Virus record (IMG/VR): IMGVR_UViG_2671180405_000016
Length of the DNA: 7,740 nucleotides
DNA from: a virus
Taxonomy: Duplodnaviria > Heunggongvirae > Uroviricota > Caudoviricetes
Direction: 5' to 3' (one strand)
In this document: positions 13-7,740 of the stretch, piece after piece
How positions within the stretch are numbered: position 1 is the first letter of the stretch
Layout: each line of letters opens with the position of its first letter
Translations under genes and position numbers: made by a program
Notes under the pieces: generated by a model
What the model was told of the DNA's origin: nothing
What the model saw: only the letters and a program-made list of their open reading frames with translations
The model's database searches: none

Positions 13-1290
13 TTAAGCGCAGCTATTTAGTGAATTAAGTAAATTAGTCAGTGACCTTGTAAAGTCTGTTAAACCTTCCTGTGAACCATCGAACATTAAG
101 GCCAGATTATTATTCCATGAATTACTTAAGCGGCCTAACTGCGTCTGAGTAGAGTTAATAATCTTTTCCCATCCACCAGCTTTATCAATCATCCTTCCCA
201 TTTCAGCGGATACTTTAGGAAGAACATCTTTAGAAAGAATCTTACCGTCTTTCATGGCCTTGTCTAATTCTTCCGTAGTCATCCCAAGACTTCTGGCAAA
301 TAACTGAAAAGCACCTGCCATTCTGTCACCTAATTGACCGCGTAGCTCTTCAGCCTGAATCTTTCCTTTAGATGCCATCTGCTCGAAAGCTTTTAAAATC
401 CCGTTAATTTCATCGGTGCTTAGCCCCATTAATCTGGATGTACCAATCACATTAGAAAATAAGGATTCTTTCTGGTCTGCATTCATATCACCAGCACCAG
501 CGGAAAACTTAGCAAAACTGCTTAATGTTTCAATCTGGTCTACACCACTACTATCAGCAAGATTCTTAACAAATTCTGTAGCTCGTTTAGCACCTTCATC
601 ACCTAAAACGAATTGTGCCGCTCGTTGTGATGCTTCTTTTTTCAGACCAACCTCCATAATCCGCCTGTAAGCTTCTAAGGCTGTCTGAAAACTATAAATG
701 GCTGTACCTGCTTTGATTGCACTCGTAGCTAATACATCCAGACTATTTGAAGCATTTTCACTGTGATTATTTTTGCTGGTGGTCTTGTTAAACTTAGAAA
801 GTGTTTCACGAAGAGACTGATTTAACTTTGCTAACTCACGATTAAAAGTTTCGTTTCCAAGTGTCTTGGATTTACTGCTTAAGCTGTAATACTGGCTTTT
901 AAAATACTTCTCAAGCATAGGATTAAAGTCACGAAGCTTGCTCATATTCGCTGAGTAAGCTGCTGTGATTGCTCTGCTTCCGCTAATTCGTGGCTGTCTT
1001 GGTTGTCTAAGTGGCTTTAAAGTATCCTCAATTTCAGTTTTAATCTTAAACGCTCTAGTGTTTTTAAGACGCTGCTCAATCTTGGAAACAGTTTTATCGA
1101 CATTTCTTTCCATTAGTTTGAGAGAATCATTTAAAGGCGTAGGATTAACTCTAAACGACTTATTCAATCGCTTCTCAATTCGTGATGCTACCTGCATCGT
1201 TTGTTTCTCGGCTTTTTCCAAGCCTTTTAAAACTTTCTGAGAGTTAAAACTTAACTCAATCAGAAAATCATCAACTTTAAATTGTGCCAT
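13..1290 (-). CDS. phage tail tape-measure protein-like (lambda gpH-like), 425 aa, possibly C-terminally truncated
   Basis: Complete ORF with ATG at 1290-1288 and TAA at 15-13; upstream AGAGGTGA Shine-Dalgarno-like motif. The N-terminus (MAQFKVDDFLIELSF) has the pattern of the lambda H N-terminus (MAEPVGDLVVDLSL). The motif EELDKAMKDGKIL resembles lambda H EELNKALKDGKIL, and the C-terminal FDG...FTRSL resembles lambda H FDG...FTRSV. The protein ends where lambda H continues into its hydrophobic C-terminal region. Similarity is recalled from memory, not computed. Confidence 0.6.
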   Translation of the reverse strand: MAQFKVDDFLIELSFNSQKVLKGLEKAEKQTMQVASRIEKRLNKSFRVNPTPLNDSLKLMERNVDKTVSKIEQRLKNTRAFKIKTEIEDTLKPLRQPRQPRISGSRAITAAYSANMSKLRDFNPMLEKYFKSQYYSLSSKSKTLGNETFNRELAKLNQSLRETLSKFNKTTSKNNHSENASNSLDVLATSAIKAGTAIYSFQTALEAYRRIMEVGLKKEASQRAAQFVLGDEGAKRATEFVKNLADSSGVDQIETLSSFAKFSAGAGDMNADQKESLFSNVIGTSRLMGLSTDEINGILKAFEQMASKGKIQAEELRGQLGDRMAGAFQLFARSLGMTTEELDKAMKDGKILSKDVLPKVSAEMGRMIDKAGGWEKIINSTQTQLGRLSNSWNNNLALMFDGSQEGLTDFTRSLTNLLNSLNSCA

Positions 1291-1678: not shown

Positions 1679-2389
1679 TCAAACAGCCTTGCTATACTTC
1701 TGAGAAATCTTCGTTAACTGCTCAATATCAGCCATCAAAGCAATCTTCTTCTGCGACTCATATTCACTAACAAGTTCTTTCATAGTATCAAGTTCTTTTT
1801 TAAGCTTTTGCTTTAACTTATCCAGTTTACCGGAATAATGCTTAGTCAAATTAGCTTCAGCTAACTGAAGAATCTCTTCATCTGTTTTATCAGTCATCAG
1901 AATAAATTGACCAGAACCCCTTAATGCTTGTCTGACATCAATTAACCGGAACCCTTCAGGGATACTTTGAAGAACTTTAGGAACGTCTTCAATCGCTGTA
2001 CCAAAACCATCATTAAAGTTTCCTTCATAATAGATAAACGGGTTTGACTTAATCTCGTAAGCAATATCATATTCTGAAGGTTTCGAGGTTTCTTCGAAGT
2101 TCTTAACAGCATCGTAAGCGACATCAAGTCTAAGACGCTGTGATTTTAAAGCTGGGTAATATTCACGCTCAAGCTCAAATAGTGCTTCAGTTTTGCAGAT
2201 ATCAGGCATTTCTTGAGGCTCAGGAGACACAAAGGAAATTACCTTTGGTGACATCTTTAGCTCTTGCTCAAGCTCAATGCGCTTGTCATGCTCTTGACGC
2301 TGAATAGTATGTAGCGGATGTTCACCCTGTGGTGACCAGTCTCCGAAGCTATCAACCTTTTTACCGTTAATATATAAATCGTTTGTCAT
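1679..2389 (-). CDS. hypothetical acidic protein (236 aa) with coiled-coil-like C-terminus
   Basis: ATG at 2389-2387 preceded by AGAGGAAATTATA; TGA stop at 1681-1679, 22 nt upstream of the next gene. No recognisable motif; its position upstream of the tape-measure-like gene could suggest a tail-module role, but this is not supported by sequence similarity. Confidence 0.65.
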   Translation of the reverse strand: MTNDLYINGKKVDSFGDWSPQGEHPLHTIQRQEHDKRIELEQELKMSPKVISFVSPEPQEMPDICKTEALFELEREYYPALKSQRLRLDVAYDAVKNFEETSKPSEYDIAYEIKSNPFIYYEGNFNDGFGTAIEDVPKVLQSIPEGFRLIDVRQALRGSGQFILMTDKTDEEILQLAEANLTKHYSGKLDKLKQKLKKELDTMKELVSEYESQKKIALMADIEQLTKISQKYSKAV

Positions 2390-2617: not shown

Positions 2618-2904
2618 AAAGCTGTAAAGGATTCAATAATGAATGAACAAAGACTTTTTGAGATAGCCTCTCAGACCAACCTGAAAGGCTAGGACGAAAA
2701 GCATTGCACCTTTCCAACTCAGAATATCCATCCATCGGATTATTGAAAGAAAAAATAAGAGAGAATTGCTCTCCCCCATATATACAATTATGTCATGCTC
2801 AAGGTTGTTTGTCAACAGCTTTTAACAGATTGGTAACATTTATACTTTAATAGATGCACCTGCAATCATACCAATCAATACAAAACAGATAATCACCAAT
2901 TCCA

Positions 2905-3228
2905 TTAATGCACCACCTTCGAATCCGTCACCAGAATATTATCGCTATACAAAATTGCTATAGCCGCCTTGAGATATTTTTCAGGGCTAACGCTGTATTT
3001 GTTCGTTTCTTCGATAATAAGACGCTTCATGTTTGAGTCGGTAACAGGAAACATAAAACGCGGTTCACCAGTTTCAATTTCCTGAATAAAGTCTTCAATT
3101 TCTTCTGAGTTTTCAGCCATTAGCTTTAGTAATTTATCAAGGTCAATTGATACACCGGAATCAGCGAAAGCCTGCACCATCATAGCAGTGTCGCTATCAA
3201 TGAAAATCTGTAATTCATATTCGTTCAT
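2905..3228 (-). CDS. hypothetical protein (107 aa from ATG at 3228; ORF track extends to a TTG at 3261)
   Basis: ATG at 3228-3226 preceded by AAGGAG with a 9-nt spacer; TAA stop at 2907-2905. The upstream TTG extension has no ribosome-binding site and would run into repeat copy 1. No recognisable family. Confidence 0.6.
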   Translation of the reverse strand: MNEYELQIFIDSDTAMMVQAFADSGVSIDLDKLLKLMAENSEEIEDFIQEIETGEPRFMFPVTDSNMKRLIIEETNKYSVSPEKYLKAAIAILYSDNILVTDSKVVH

Positions 3229-3248: not shown

Positions 3249-3375
3249 CAGACCTCCTCAATCGCTCTGTAACGAGCTAAACAGTCTTTTTCAGGGGTAG
3301 CCTGTACAGTGGTATTACCCACCCTAAAATAAGATAGTTTTTTGCGTTAGAATGCGATTGAGAGCGTCTGATAAG
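3249..3375 (+). repeat. copy 1 of an inverted-repeat-bounded element of about 127 bp (conserved terminal blocks, variable centre)
   Basis: The 5' block CAGACCTCCTCAATCGCTCTGTAACGAGCTAAACAG and 3' block TTTTTTGCGTTAGAATGCGATTGAGAGCGTCTGATAAG are each about 85-90% identical to the corresponding blocks of the copy at 4901-5004. The terminal 16-mers (3250-3265 and 3354-3369) are imperfect reverse complements, giving about 15 bp of pairing with single bulges. Confidence 0.6.
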
Positions 3376-3406: not shown

Positions 3407-3607
3407 CTACCAATAACCTAATTCCGCTTTATTTCGTTCAAACCATTCCGCTGTAACTGCTGTCTTTAGTGTTACGTTTGGGCTGGTGGCATGAATGAAG
3501 ATATCTTTTGGATTGCAAGCATCACCGAAACCACCTTCTTTGATGAGCAGGTCTGATACATGCTTAATCATTTTATCTGTCAAATATTCGAATTTAATAC
3601 ATAACAT
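3407..3607 (-). CDS. hypothetical protein (66 aa from ATG at 3607; ORF track gives a TTG start at 3640)
   Basis: ATG at 3607-3605 overlaps the upstream gene's stop as TAATG and is preceded by GGAG with a 5-nt spacer; TAG stop at 3409-3407. No recognisable family. Confidence 0.5.
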   Translation of the reverse strand: MLCIKFEYLTDKMIKHVSDLLIKEGGFGDACNPKDIFIHATSPNVTLKTAVTAEWFERNKAELGYW

Positions 3608-3879
3608 TAAATCTCCAGGAGTAAATTGTTTGGGTGGCAATTTCTTTTATTACCATCCCTGAAGATAATCTTTTTAGTTGCCTGAACTTCATGATGCAAA
3701 AACCAGATGACATACTTCAGATAATAATCACGAGTGCCATAACGAATCATTGGATTACCGTAAGCATCATCTCTTGTCTTAACCTCTCCACCATCAATCC
3801 ATTCAAGCATTCCTGTCTCATAATTAATCATGAAGTAAGTTGCAAAGAACCGTTTAATATCATCTCGCCATTGCTTCAT
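3607..3879 (-). CDS. HNH-like (HNH_3-type) small protein, 90 aa, with a degenerate catalytic motif
   Basis: ATG at 3879-3877 preceded by AGGAGG with a 7-nt spacer; TAA at 3609-3607. The C-terminus YVIWFLHHEV...KKIIFRDGNKRNCHPNNLLL resembles the HNH_3 pattern (HRL.W.L.HG....IDHIDGN..NN..NLR), but the IDH position reads IFR, so the usual catalytic His appears absent. Assignment is by eye. Confidence 0.55.
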   Translation of the reverse strand: MKQWRDDIKRFFATYFMINYETGMLEWIDGGEVKTRDDAYGNPMIRYGTRDYYLKYVIWFLHHEVQATKKIIFRDGNKRNCHPNNLLLEI

Positions 3880-3881
3880 AA

Positions 3882-4160
3882 TCAGACCTCCTGAGACAGT
3901 TTGTGAATTTTGATACTTAGTAACCTTGCTAAATCCAGTCCAAAAGCATTTAAGGATTTCAGACTATCAAGGTCATCTTGCTTAATCCTGATATGGTGTC
4001 TTGCAGCCTCTAAGCGACTATTAAGCAAATCCTGTTCGTTAATATCACGGTTAATTGCAAGCTTCATCACTGCTGAGTGTGGCAGACCTGTAATGTTTTT
4101 GATTCGGTTCAGTTCATCAAAGGCTGTCTTTGTAACTCTGGTTAATGTGTGTTTATTCAT
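3882..4160 (-). CDS. hypothetical protein (92 aa), possibly a small DNA-binding regulator
   Basis: ATG at 4160-4158 preceded by GAGGA with an 8-nt spacer and directly abutting the upstream gene's TAA (4163-4161); TGA stop at 3884-3882, 2 nt before the next ATG. The segment TAFDELNRIKNITGLPHSAVMKLAINR is helix-turn-helix-like by eye only. Confidence 0.6.
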   Translation of the reverse strand: MNKHTLTRVTKTAFDELNRIKNITGLPHSAVMKLAINRDINEQDLLNSRLEAARHHIRIKQDDLDSLKSLNAFGLDLARLLSIKIHKLSQEV

Positions 4161-4718
4161 TTAAAAATCCTCTGTAACTAAATAGGGGTCAAACTCGAAA
4201 TCTGGTTGCTCGTTTTCCATTGGCTCAATATTCCCAACGGCAATATGATGTTCAACAATGCCAATTAATTTCGCGCACATCACAGCAAGCAAAGCGCAAT
4301 ATTTATCGCTTGGTAATTCGTAACTAAGTCTGGTTGCCTGTCGCTGAAGATGATTTGTCACGGTGGATGCGTTAATTTCGTCAAGATTCTTTAGCAGATA
4401 AAATAGTTTTTTGTTGTATTTCGGGTGGCCTTCACTTCTACAGAACCCAATAAAAACATCATCAAGCTTGCTTGGTAACTGCTCGTAACTGTCAAAGTTA
4501 GCCAGATAATTTTTAATAGTATTCTTTGTTGTTTTGCGTACTGGCATAAATCTGTCTCGTGGCGTAATGCTACGAATGACCGCTTCAATGTTCTTACGTT
4601 CGGATTTGCTAAAGGTTGGGACTTCGTAGCTGGTGGGGTTGTTTGTGTAAGCGTAGGAGTTGTGCTTGTTGCGTTCTCTTGATGCCTGAAGCATCGCTCT
4701 AAATTCTGAATACTGCAT
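4161..4718 (-). CDS. hypothetical protein (185 aa), first gene of the minus-strand operon
   Basis: ATG at 4718-4716 about 45 nt downstream of the predicted minus-strand promoter. A 5-codon upstream mini-ORF (ATG AGA GTC AGA ACA TGA) ends immediately before this ATG; the conventional Shine-Dalgarno sequence is weak. No recognisable family. Confidence 0.6.
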   Translation of the reverse strand: MQYSEFRAMLQASRERNKHNSYAYTNNPTSYEVPTFSKSERKNIEAVIRSITPRDRFMPVRKTTKNTIKNYLANFDSYEQLPSKLDDVFIGFCRSEGHPKYNKKLFYLLKNLDEINASTVTNHLQRQATRLSYELPSDKYCALLAVMCAKLIGIVEHHIAVGNIEPMENEQPDFEFDPYLVTEDF

Positions 4719-4769
4719 TCATGTTCTGACTCTCATAAGATGTTATTATTCTGTTAACCTATATATACA

Positions 4770-4798
4770 ATATTAGCATTTTCAAAGACTAATGTCAA
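4770..4798 (-). promoter_or_regulatory. sigma70-type promoter for the minus-strand operon
   Basis: On the minus strand: -35 TTGACA (plus 4793-4798), 17-bp spacer, -10 TAATAT (plus 4770-4775). Confidence 0.5.
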
Positions 4799-4804
4799 GT
4801 ATTT

Positions 4805-4834
4805 TTAACATTTTCGTAACATCTGTGGTATAAT
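4805..4834 (+). promoter_or_regulatory. sigma70-type promoter with extended -10, rightward
   Basis: -35 TTAACA (4805-4810), 18-bp spacer, TGg-TATAAT extended -10 (TG at 4826-4827, TATAAT at 4829-4834). It sits back-to-back with the leftward promoter, with 6 bp between the two -35 hexamers. Confidence 0.55.
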
Positions 4835-4856: not shown

Positions 4857-5189
4857 ATGAGGCGTGGCTATGTATTTGGTCGCATATTTTGCATTGCACA
4901 CAGACCTCTTCAATCGCCCTGTAACGAGTTAAACGACCTCTTCAGGTCAACTCATAAGGTCAGGTACTTTTTGTGTCAGAATGCGATTGAGAGCGTCTTA
5001 CAAGGAAAACTAATGGTAAATCTCCCTCCTGAGCTGGGGTCACCTGATGTATGGACTGGTGGAGGTATTGGGCTGATTGCAGGCCTGCTACTTCGCTACG
5101 TCCTCGTCAGAGTGCTTGTTGTCTTTAAACTGTTCGGTCGTACATGGACGCTTGACCTTAAGGATAACGACCACACAGACCCCCGTTAA
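4857..5189 (+). CDS. hypothetical protein; the C-terminal 58 aa (alternative start ATG at 5013) form a small predicted single-pass membrane protein
   Basis: ATG at 4857 preceded by GGGGAGAG; TAA at 5187-5189. An in-frame ATG at 5013 has its own AAGGA ribosome-binding site (6-nt spacer) and gives MVNLPPELGSPDVWTGGGIGLIAGLLLRYVLVRVLVVFKLFGRTWTLDLKDNDHTDPR, with a hydrophobic stretch GGGIGLIAGLLLRYVLVRVLVVF. The 5' part of the long ORF overlaps repeat copy 2, so which start is used is unresolved. Confidence 0.4.
   Translation: MRRGYVFGRIFCIAHRPLQSPCNELNDLFRSTHKVRYFLCQNAIESVLQGKLMVNLPPELGSPDVWTGGGIGLIAGLLLRYVLVRVLVVFKLFGRTWTLDLKDNDHTDPR
4901..5004 (+). repeat. copy 2 of the inverted-repeat-bounded element (about 104 bp; shorter variable centre)
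   Basis: 5' block CAGACCTCTTCAATCGCCCTGTAACGAGTTAAACGACCTCTTCAGG and 3' block TTTTTGTGTCAGAATGCGATTGAGAGCGTCTTACAAG. The terminal 16-mers (4902-4917 and 4983-4998) pair as 4 + 4 + 7 bp with two single-nucleotide bulges. Same orientation as copy 1. Confidence 0.6.
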
Positions 5190-5201
5190 ACTCCTTCAAA
5201 A

Positions 5202-5242
5202 CCCCTGCACGAGATGACAGATAGAAGTCTATGGTACAGGGG
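5202..5242 (+). terminator. weak terminator-like hairpin downstream of the small membrane-protein ORF
   Basis: CCCCTG (5202-5207) pairs with CAGGGG (5237-5242) around a 29-nt loop, followed by TGTCTTTAGCATTTTGTG. The loop is too long for a strong call. Confidence 0.2.
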
Positions 5243-5324
5243 TGTCTTTAGCATTTTGTGCTATCTATTAAAAAATAGCTTGACAGAACCGGAAAGCTGT
5301 ATCTATCAAGCATTCACCTCTCTG

Positions 5325-5514
5325 ACAGTAATTTCTAAAAGTTCTTATTTTTCAATAAGTTGTAATTAGCCATATATAGAGAACTGACAAGTCTCTTCAC
5401 AGACAACTCTGCAACCTTAACAGTAACTTCTAAAAATGCTTATTTTTCAACGAGTTGTAATCACCCAATATATAAGGCTGTCCAGTACCTTCACAGATAA
5501 CTTCAAGCCCTCTT
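5325..5514 (+). repeat. tandem direct repeat, two copies of a 95-bp unit
   Basis: Unit 1 starts at 5325 (ACAGTAATTTCTAAAAGTTCTTATTTTTCAATAAGTTGTAAT...) and unit 2 at 5420 (ACAGTAACTTCTAAAAATGCTTATTTTTCAACGAGTTGTAAT...). The first 42 nt match at 37 positions, and homology continues through ...CTTCACAGA(C/T)AACT... to the unit end. Confidence 0.55.
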
Positions 5515-6243
5515 AACCGCCCCACTAATCGGGAGAAGAGCGATAACCCCAGAGAGGGAAGCTCCTTTCTTAACCGACCTCTTAAACGACCTTTACAGAC
5601 CTTGTTCAAGGTAATCACAATAGTTTTTCTTCCCTCGGTTTCCTGTGTTCCTCGGCTGGCTATTGAGATTTGAAAGACCTCTGTAAGCGCTCTCTTAGCG
5701 AGAGAAAAATCATTCATAGTGACCCCAAGCGAAGCGCCCCTCTAAAAAAAGATTTTTTAGCTATTTTGTTTAAAAGCATATCAAACGATACATTTTATTG
5801 ATTTAGGTCAAAGACAAAAGCATTGACAAAATGGTAAGATTGTTCACATGACCTTACTTATTTAAGAGACTTTGAAACAGCCTGTTTAACAGGTCACTAC
5901 CTCTGGTCTTATCGTTCCCTTCTTTCTAGGTGGTTATCTGTTAAGAGTTTTTCAGTTTTTATTCTTAAGATAATTGTTAAGATGATACTCTCCCTTCGGG
6001 TTATATCGTATCTCTTCTCCCGTTAAATATCCCTTCACAGTCAGACTAAATAACACCTGTGTAGTTCTTGGTAGAATCTTTCAAGGTAACTTAGCTCTGA
6101 GTTTATGAAGTTGACCTATGAGATAGACTCTACCGAATCTGTTAGTCAATTGTTGCTTAGGTGCTGCTAAGTGAAGTGGCACACTGAATTTGGCCACCTG
6201 AACAGAGGTGATATGCTCACCTCAGAACAACACAGGTGCTCCA

Positions 6244-7412
<1,169 letters not shown>

Positions 7413-7420
7413 CCACTTCA

Positions 7421-7711
7421 GGCGACTTATCAGTGGAAAAACACAGAACGATCAGGATATATGCGCCCTGGCAAAAGAGTATGAGATCGCCATGCTGTTG
7501 GTGACTAAAGGTGCAGAAGGGGTGGTGGTCTGTTATCGAGGACAAGTTCACCATTTTGCTGGAATGTCTGTGAATTGTGTCGATAGCACGGGGGCGGGAG
7601 ATGCGTTCGTTGCCGGGTTACTCACAGGTCTGTCCTCTACGGGATTATCTACAGATGAGAGAGAAATGCGACGAATTATCGATCTCGCTCAACGTTGCGG
7701 AGCGCTTGCAG
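7421..7711 (+). pseudogene. internal fragment of a pfkB-family carbohydrate kinase gene (fructokinase-like), truncated at both ends by IS elements
   Basis: The frame encodes ...ICALAKEYEIAMLLVTKGAEGVVVCYRGQVHHFAGMSVNCVDSTGAGDAFVAGLLTGL...AQRCGALA. DSTGAGDAFVAGLL matches the C-terminal pfkB/ribokinase-family signature (D-[ST]-x-GAGD). The coding frame is cut by the IS911 right end at 7420/7421 and runs into the IS1 end at 7712; about two thirds of a typical 300-aa kinase is missing. The ORF-track entry 7342-7716 is a chimera of IS911 sequence, this fragment and IS1. Confidence 0.7.
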
Positions 7712-7740
7712 GGTGATGCTGCCAACTTACTGATTTAGTG
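7712..7740 (+). mobile_element. IS1 terminal inverted repeat (left end), element continues beyond the window
   Basis: GGTGATGCTGCCAACTTACTGATTTAGTG matches the IS1 terminal sequence (GGTGATGCTGCCAACTTACTGAT...) as recalled. Only 29 bp are in the window; the boundary is uncertain by 1 bp because of the GGG run at 7711-7713. Confidence 0.75.

Follow-up and report, generated by a model that had tools for sequence, protein, structure and literature searches.

We suggest that four small genes, g1 to g4, on the minus strand of a 7,740-nucleotide stretch of Shigella sonnei DNA (IMG/VR record IMGVR_UViG_2671180405_000016, hereafter the window), are the promoter-proximal part of a leftward early or regulatory transcription unit that belongs to a satellite-like island linked to phages of the Felix-O1 type. 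We put the chance that this reading is right at about even. Judging from sequence comparison, the island is most likely similar to a satellite in its way of life and either hitchhikes on virulent Felixounavirus phages or interferes with them. Any role proposed for a single one of the four proteins carries much lower confidence than the reading of the operon and its island.

Structure and extent of the transcription unit

The four genes (Table 1) are packed as tightly as a sequence-only reading of this DNA had described. Read in the sequence, the stop codon TAA of g1 is followed directly by the ATG of g2 (0 nucleotides), g2 and g3 are separated by 2 nucleotides (TGA-tt-ATG), and g3 and g4 overlap by 1 nucleotide in TAATG; an equivalent junction style was found again in all related loci that were read. 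Shine-Dalgarno sequences lie 6-8 nucleotides 5' of the starts of g2 (AGAGGA), g3 (AGGAGG) and g4 (GGAG), so that the earlier statement that each gene has its own holds for these three; for g1 it is weaker, with only GAGAG 11 nucleotides upstream of the start. A TTG start that would lengthen g4 to 77 amino acids is possible, and the 66-amino-acid form is the one used by RefSeq in related loci. The strong promoter that had been proposed ahead of the cluster is present as a near-consensus sequence, P(-), with a -35 hexamer that is invariant in 11 related loci and a -10 element that is conserved with variants. All genes being on the same strand, with junctions of at most 2 nucleotides or overlapping, one predicted upstream promoter and no predicted internal terminator, the earlier description of the genes as compactly arranged and translationally coupled, within an island of phage origin, is supported.

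The unit does not appear to end with g4. A terminator scan of the minus strand found no terminator-like site between g1 (4718) and position 2779, where a hairpin with a U-tract (T1) begins, and because of this the unit probably runs from P(-) through g1, g2, g3, g4, a palindromic repeat (repeat A), g5 and a peptide of 21 amino acids to T1. It would thus comprise six open reading frames (ORFs) instead of the closed set of four suggested earlier, and the four genes would probably make up its first two thirds. The fifth gene, g5, is present in all island variants with 65-79% identity and has a ratio of non-synonymous to synonymous substitution rates (dN/dS) of ~0.23. The 21-codon ORF (MELVIICFVLIGMIAGASIKV) is retained in five loci in two sequence forms, both hydrophobic. 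The stem of T1, which is energetically modest, is kept with differing sequences in L002 and L003.

Purifying selection acts on each of the four genes, with dN/dS values of 0.04-0.4 wherever dS is informative. In comparison with four E. coli loci the values are 0.12-0.40 for g1 and 0.10-0.25 for g2 within one allele type, and for g3 and g4 they are ~0.04-0.15 where dS is large enough to judge. The four genes are not chance ORFs. The mini-ORF of five codons that had been noted directly before the g1 ATG is present in the window; its own ATG, however, is absent in L003, L014, L015 and L016 (4/11 related loci), and for this reason it is probably incidental and not functional. The sequence ATGAATG at the start of g1 (4716-4722, minus strand) is invariant across the 11 loci. 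It includes an out-of-frame ATG (4722..4720, minus strand), likewise invariant, which is the better placed of the two relative to the Shine-Dalgarno sequence and opens an ORF of seven codons ending inside g1. Translation of this short ORF could damp that of g1.

The carrier island

The cluster lies in DNA with a GC content of 38.2%; IS911 and the chromosomal DNA next to the island have ~50-52%. A matching block was found in 383 of 5426 complete E. coli genomes (~7%), where the island is ~11-12 kb long and splits yecE (DUF72), lies between tonB and yciI, or adjoins ymdF. At each type of site one end of the island is formed by a large serine recombinase with Resolvase, Recombinase and zinc-ribbon domains, which would mobilise it. 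This gene is followed by those for a protein named "baseplate", in which there is a Dit-like domain, for a tape measure protein and for proteins of 69 and 236 amino acids, then by ~500 nucleotides of non-coding DNA with a second strong predicted promoter, P2, by g5, g4, g3, g2 and g1, by the divergent promoters, and by an ORF of 58-62 codons for a membrane-type protein. Some copies add a Dam methylase with a helix-turn-helix (HTH) domain and a small serine recombinase. Capsid, terminase and recognisable replication genes were not found among the annotated genes of the related islands. Intact related islands therefore combine, as a satellite does, an integrase with the lack of capsid and terminase genes; the window is without the recombinase end.

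In the window the island is cut at position 6171 by an element (6171-7420) that, from its end sequences and OrfA/OrfB, we take to be IS911, so that the S. sonnei operon may be intact but stranded. Neither the window nor L003 carries Dam. Beyond the insertion lie a fragment of a sugar-kinase-like gene (7421-7711) and a sequence that looks like an IS1 terminal repeat (7712-7740).

A distant island in another enterobacterial genome, also inserted in a DUF72 gene, keeps a g1 homologue, the tape measure gene, both types of recombinase and Dam, and is without g2, g3 and g4. A single-protein scan of genome contigs recovered E. albertii and Citrobacter loci only, and three matches in IMG/VR are larger contigs of 25-52 kb that reach well past the island.

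Relationship to Felix-O1-type phages

Aligned over 98% of its length, the baseplate-associated protein of the island shows 78% identity to the product of the gene that directly follows the tape measure gene in Felixounavirus, and ~253 phage records fall in the 60-80% band for this protein. At the nucleotide level the gene (L001:10068-10838, outside the window) is 89% identical over 529 bp to the Felix-O1-type phage wV8. The island's tape measure protein, the N-terminal part of which is encoded in the window (13-1290), shows 28% identity from end to end with Felixounavirus tape measure proteins, and the GC content of wV8 is 38.9%, beside 38.2% in the island. Non-coding DNA is shared as well. 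Window positions 5886-5921 match wV8 14616-14653 at 33/38 positions, and a GGT-rich element (L001:18634-18719, L003:11920-12005), which is situated past the point where IS911 cuts the island and does not occur in the window, has matches at four intergenic places in wV8 with E values down to 3e-12, two of them overlapping annotated DR_4 repeats. A megablast search of phage records with the island gave no match, and the distant mode of the search recovered the tape measure segment only.

What ties the island to a candidate helper is a shared gene, the TGTTA repeats described below and these other non-coding matches with Felixounavirus. The evidence points to a satellite-like island, so far undescribed, that is associated with virulent phages of the Felix-O1 type; a search by accession and keyword of the literature, in an incomplete collection, found no description of the island or of Felixounavirus satellites.

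TGTTA repeats at the island promoters and in the phage genome

Pairs of the form TGTTA-N6-8-TGTTA occur three times in the window against 0.12 expected, a count that was reached in 0/200 shuffles, and their positions are conserved in all loci of the E. coli type (Table 1). The predicted promoters P(-) and P2 have a common layout, in which TGTTA-N6-TGTTA is followed by a few bases, TTGACA, 17 nucleotides and an extended -10 element. In wV8, pairs of this form are found 17 times against 1.75 expected genome-wide, 13 of the 17 within positions 14358-15321, and a non-coding stretch of 1.6 kb holds 33 copies of TGTTA (20 per kb, compared with 3.4 per kb genome-wide), mostly with 11-bp spacing. The wV8 repeat TGTTAAGAAAATGTTA and the island sequence TGTTACGAAAATGTTA, from the site at 4806..4821, differ by one base.

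The region of the TGTTA array recurs, conserved and without annotation, in 257 Felix-like phage records; some of these have it at their ends, and it could be a terminal, packaging or origin region. The temporal regulation of Felix O1 transcription was stated to be unknown in the published account of the genome (PMC3185647), in which a term search for repeats, origin and non-coding regions turned up no mention of the array. An extended motif, ATGTTACRRAAATGTWA, is found just upstream of g1 homologues in three divergent lineages, two of which have a g1 that is only ~30% identical to that of the island. In 120 unrelated viral contigs, which served as a negative control, the same motif occurs at chance level and never adjoins a g1 homologue. 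In two phage contexts a search for repeat arrays upstream of g1 homologues gave nothing convincing.

Backbone genes and an exchangeable slot

Across 11 related loci, on which the comparison of backbone and variable genes is based, no locus is without g1, g2 or g5, the alleles of which form a mosaic, and the position after g2 is occupied in four ways. The window type has g3 and then g4; a second type has g4' (68-71% identical) and then g3' (39-41% identical, with the catalytic histidine kept); a third has g3, an ORF of 76 codons and g4'' (40% identical); and in a fourth there is one protein of 128 amino acids with a C-terminal HTH domain. In the distant island an HTH protein of 97 amino acids comes directly after g1. 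Of the genes of the operon, distant islands retain g1 alone, and all members of the close family have g2. We conclude that g1 and g2 belong to the island backbone and that g3 and g4 travel together, in variable order, in an exchangeable slot; therefore a cargo role, in interference or exclusion, is possible for g3 and g4 only.

The g1 protein is 100% identical to hypothetical proteins of S. sonnei on >1000 contigs. In an exhaustive search of 1.8 billion representatives its relatives amounted to one full-length cluster, fragments and three distant proteins, of which one is encoded in the analogous distant island, another comes first in a group of small genes that, on a prophage-like contig, lies upstream of those for terminase and portal, and the last lies on a short metagenomic contig; the phage records hold one homologue, with 31% identity, in an Aeromonas phage. 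There was no match in Pfam, NCBIfam or PADLOC, two weak PHROG matches were to entries of unknown function, sequence and profile searches of the PDB gave nothing meaningful, and no relative with a known function or a solved structure was found. An AlphaFold2 model has a confident all-alpha core at residues 61-165 (block means of 82-93), whose fold matches in BFVD are uncharacterised phage proteins. The N-terminus is basic (isoelectric point 9.9) and the last 20 residues are acidic-aromatic. The g1 protein belongs to the island backbone and is a candidate DNA-binding regulator.

The g2 protein is basic as well (isoelectric point 9.8) and lineage-restricted, with two allele types that are ~60% identical. 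Among the bases of the promoter region a single indel column is associated with the g2 allele type, an association confounded by linkage. The matches of g2 to the N-terminus of DndE, which we take to be related to ribbon-helix-helix proteins, are below threshold (E values of 0.013-0.05, 14-16 bits against a cut-off of 25 bits). An internal repeat aligns in register (hhalign, P 0.005), and the helix pattern of the AlphaFold2 model fits two strand-helix-helix units, but the model has a mean predicted local distance difference test score (pLDDT) of only 49.9; single-protein and profile searches found no sequence match in the PDB. These faint signals point to g2 as probably a tandem ribbon-helix-helix DNA-binding protein. 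With regulators of this class (CopG/Arc, and F TraY for the tandem form) it would share a single chain made up of two strand-helix-helix units, along with a basic isoelectric point; in contrast to them, it reaches threshold with no family model, its structural model is of low confidence, and its DNA binding is a prediction. A role of g1 or g2 as recombination directionality factor was considered and rejected, since their alleles and the type of recombinase vary independently across the loci.

Against the Pfam family HNH_3 (PF13392) g3 scores 22.7 bits (E 7.5e-5), short of the gathering cut-off of 24.8 bits, and it also matches HNH entries among the PHROGs. It has in common with the homing endonucleases of this family (I-HmuI type) a core that includes the DGN and NNL positions, and D75, N77, N80, N85 and L86 (DGN ... 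NL) are invariant in a three-way alignment. Unlike those enzymes it has Phe72 at the position that aligns with the catalytic histidine of the beta-beta-alpha-metal motif in two HNH_3 proteins, a residue found in all five g3 sequences of allele 1; it is only 90 amino acids long, a minimal core of the HNH_3 type that lacks the DNA-binding domain usually found at the C-terminus, and it is encoded in an operon and paired with g4. A tblastn search of 50,697 phage records found no homologue of g3, and none of g4. The latter is an ORFan with only 25 clusters, all enterobacterial, and without a family match in Pfam, NCBIfam, PHROG or PADLOC. The earlier view that none of the four proteins can be placed in a nameable family, a degenerate HNH-like member excepted, is supported, nothing having come above threshold in the Pfam, NCBIfam, PHROG and PDB searches.

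Discussion

In the explanation that we favour, P(-), P(+) and P2 would be governed through the 11-bp-spaced TGTTA pairs acting as operators. The g1 protein would be the island's own regulator and would bind these repeats, and the large TGTTA array of an incoming helper genome may titrate or redirect it; alternatively, a helper or host protein may be what binds the repeats. The g2 protein would be a second small DNA-binding protein, of the ribbon-helix-helix type, and g3 and g4 would form an exchangeable cargo pair that acts, in this allele with its g3 devoid of the catalytic histidine, by binding and not by cutting. Going further, one may picture the island as the founding member of an enterobacterial (Enterobacteriaceae) family of PLE-like satellites that parasitise virulent phages of the Felix-O1 type, with an early operon switched through the TGTTA repeats that the helper has in an array in its own control or terminal region, with g1 as the founder of a group of repeat-binding regulators, and with g3 and g4 as an exchangeable interference cassette built on a disarmed homing-endonuclease fold. 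This extended picture is tentative, and we consider it rather doubtful.

Several points weigh against the satellite-like reading. No homologue of g1-g5 was found in wV8, and the copy of the island in S. sonnei is truncated by IS911. The tail genes could equally be interference decoys, and what binds the TGTTA repeats could be a protein of the helper or the host and not g1. Excision, replication and packaging of the island are predictions, with no replication gene recognised; so are the functions of all four proteins, and P(-), P(+), P2 and the terminators are predicted from consensus. The ribbon-helix-helix assignment of g2 is built on sub-threshold matches and a low-confidence model.

The sequence-only reading had regarded small coupled operons of this kind as typical locations for defence, superinfection-exclusion or host-takeover modules, and had named confinement to a single lineage as an outcome that would speak against this. 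A self-contained anti-phage defence or exclusion module, carried as cargo by a prophage-like island, would fit small, coupled ORFans in a mobile element that is clearly engaged with a group of virulent phages, all the more as the position of g3 and g4 behaves as a variable hotspot and g3 comes from a nuclease family. However, g1-g4, g5 and the proteins of 236, 69 and 58 amino acids have no match in PADLOC-DB v2 at E <= 0.1, g1 is kept in distant islands and g2 throughout the close family, which is not how cargo behaves, and g3 in this allele lacks the catalytic histidine. The arrangement g1-g4 is, moreover, limited to one island lineage (Escherichia, Shigella, Citrobacter and Salmonella). The idea of such a module is thus unsupported as it was put, and we consider it unlikely. 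In a second rival reading g3 and g4 would be a nuclease and its inhibitor, of the toxin-antitoxin or immunity type, with g4 neutralising the HNH protein and the pair stabilising the island or attacking helper DNA. Co-occurrence of the two genes in either order, their very strong conservation, and the arrangement in which the histidine-bearing g3 variant follows its g4 partner, that is, in antitoxin-toxin order, are what such a pair would lead one to expect. The phenylalanine in place of histidine in the window allele, fixed under purifying selection, is not, nor are the missing DNA-binding extension of g3, the replacement of both genes by one HTH protein in some loci and the lack of any family match for g4, and we rate this pair as quite unlikely.

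Two further explanations receive less credence from us. The genes could redirect packaging, with g2 as a protein similar to terminase small subunits and g3 as an HNH accessory factor, the two together directing the terminase of the helper onto island DNA. In some cos phages terminases are aided by HNH proteins, g2 weakly matches a P27-family small terminase model (E 0.027), and the island copies helper non-coding DNA that is found at the record ends of some Felix-like genomes. Yet the terminase match amounts to 14.4 bits against a cut-off of 45.6 bits, g3 is of the homing-endonuclease HNH_3 type and without the catalytic histidine, g2-g4 are missing from distant islands that keep the rest, and no HNH gene lies beside the wV8 terminase; a packaging module is improbable. 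The least probable of the explanations, in our estimate, is that of a decaying prophage remnant whose four ORFs have no current function. It would account for the truncation of the S. sonnei copy by IS911 amid other insertion sequences, and for an E. coli copy with internal stops in the tape measure and 236-amino-acid genes, but it is at odds with purifying selection on all four genes, with the conservation of the coupling and the promoters, and with intact recombinases at >=3 insertion sites in several genera.

For the satellite-like island that we favour, the closest functional analogue is the PLE of Vibrio cholerae. Like the island, it is a small chromosomal element with a large serine recombinase, with many small ORFans in packed operons and without capsid and terminase genes, and its tie to a virulent myophage recalls the apparent tie of the island to one group of such phages. 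It differs in that no search found sequence homology between the two and in that the island has genes for a tape measure and a baseplate-associated protein and lacks a replication initiator that could be recognised. To our knowledge, PLEs do not carry a tape measure or baseplate-associated gene. A second parallel is the cross-regulation of satellite P4 and its helper P2, in which Ogr/Delta activators act at sites upstream of late promoters. As in that system, short sites lie at about -50 of the island's predicted promoters and are also present in the candidate helper's genome, which suggests a shared regulator that would couple expression of the island to the helper. The P2/P4 site is, however, a dyad, whereas the island motif is a direct repeat with 11-bp spacing; the island is without homologues of Ogr/Delta, Sid, Psu and alpha, and P2 is temperate, in contrast to the virulent candidate helper. 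In defence or cargo hotspots of P2 phages and P4 satellites (PMC9122126), a fixed backbone position holds alternative, unrelated small genes. The slot after g2 resembles these hotspots in holding alternative small genes, and differs from them in that its occupants in the window match no known defence family and the alternatives are small proteins of DNA-binding type.

If the satellite-like reading is true, the island would be a tractable E. coli model for the hijacking of a virulent helper, and the operon would be the obvious place for sensing and interference functions. In Vibrio, PLE and PICMI are examples of satellites whose helpers are strictly virulent, and one study reportedly found satellites induced by virulent phages in Streptococcus thermophilus. 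Phages of the Felix-O1 group are widely used for typing and biocontrol of Salmonella and E. coli, and their performance could be affected by an island that copies a tail gene and control repeats of this group and has matches in ~7% of the complete genomes of E. coli. The g1 and g4 proteins represent families without known relatives, and the interest of the four genes would come mostly from their island context and not from any demonstrated function.

Other features of the window

The features of the window are collected in Table 1. P(+) lies back-to-back with P(-) and is conserved across related loci, and all island loci have kept the ORF of 58 codons that it would serve, for which some RefSeq genomes carry an annotation.

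Table 1. Features in and around the operon, with positions counted along the window
Feature	Coordinates	Strand	Description
g1	4718..4161	minus	ORF, 185 amino acids
g2	4160..3882	minus	ORF, 92 amino acids
g3	3879..3607	minus	ORF, 90 amino acids
g4	3607..3407	minus	ORF, 66 amino acids counted from ATG
g5	3228..2905	minus	107 amino acids, acidic; probably on the g1-g4 transcript
21-codon hydrophobic ORF	2905..2840	minus	TAATG overlap with g5; unannotated
Mini-ORF	4736..4719	minus	5 codons (MRVRT, then stop); abuts g1 ATG
P(-)	4798..4770	minus	predicted promoter; TTGACA, 17-nucleotide spacer, TG-n-TAATAT; consensus scan 10/12
P(+)	4805..4834	plus	predicted divergent promoter; TTAACA-18-TG-g-TATAAT; consensus scan 11/12
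P2 with TGTTA pair	2787..2838	minus	predicted promoter; TTGACA-17-TG-n-CATAAT
T1	2779..2755	minus	hairpin and U-tract from terminator scan; at +1 region of P2
TGTTA-N6-TGTTA pair	4806..4821	minus	~-51 of P(-); overlaps -35 and spacer of P(+)
TGTTA-N6-TGTTA pair, inverted	4741..4756	plus	~+8 to +23 of P(-) transcript
TGTTA-N6-TGTTA pair	2823-2838	minus	~-51 of P2
Repeat A	3249-3375		imperfect palindrome between g4 and g5
Repeat B	4901-5004		imperfect palindrome in 5' untranslated region of P(+) transcript
58-codon ORF	5013..5189	plus	hydrophobic segment, membrane-type; from P(+)

The operon had also been described as bounded by two homologous repeats. Both are real, but the probable transcript runs through repeat A, and the island can do without repeat B, a discrete insertion/deletion unit that is precisely missing from L003, L012 and L016 (3/11 related loci). 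Folded as RNA of the minus strand, repeat A reaches -51.6 kcal/mol (z -7.2); it is followed by the Shine-Dalgarno sequence of g5, and a U-tract is absent, so that it is not an intrinsic terminator. The arms of the two repeats are conserved and their centres differ. With repeat A read on the minus and repeat B on the plus strand, the transcripts would be complementary over arms of ~35 nucleotides, in an antisense-type arrangement. Rfam scans of the window, the GN25 island and repeats A and B gave no match. Copies of the repeats are found at 1-6 places per genome, and the genomes that have them (398) are hardly more numerous than those with the island (382-383); a genome-wide miniature inverted-repeat transposable element was rejected on these counts. 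Segments flipped by an invertase were judged unlikely, since we infer that the ~70-80 bp between the arms are very short for a serine invertase.

P2, with an architecture like that of P(-), heads the operon of the 236-amino-acid, 69-amino-acid and tape measure genes. A hairpin with a U-tract lies almost at its +1 position and is followed by a leader of ~350 nucleotides before the 236-amino-acid gene, with a second terminator-like hairpin at 2617-2597; this predicted layout suggests antitermination or short-RNA control of the tape measure operon. The protein of 236 amino acids (1679-2389, minus strand), encoded upstream of the tape measure gene, is named "transposase" by RefSeq in some E. coli genomes and has no match in Pfam, NCBIfam or PHROG; from its position, it may be similar to a tail assembly chaperone.

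On the other side of the operon, ~1 kb of non-coding island DNA (5190-6170) contains two direct repeats of ~95 nucleotides (5325-5502) and several words similar to CTTCACAGA and TTAAACGACCT. Counted over the whole window with <=1 mismatch, CTTCACAGA occurs 9 times against 2.3 expected.

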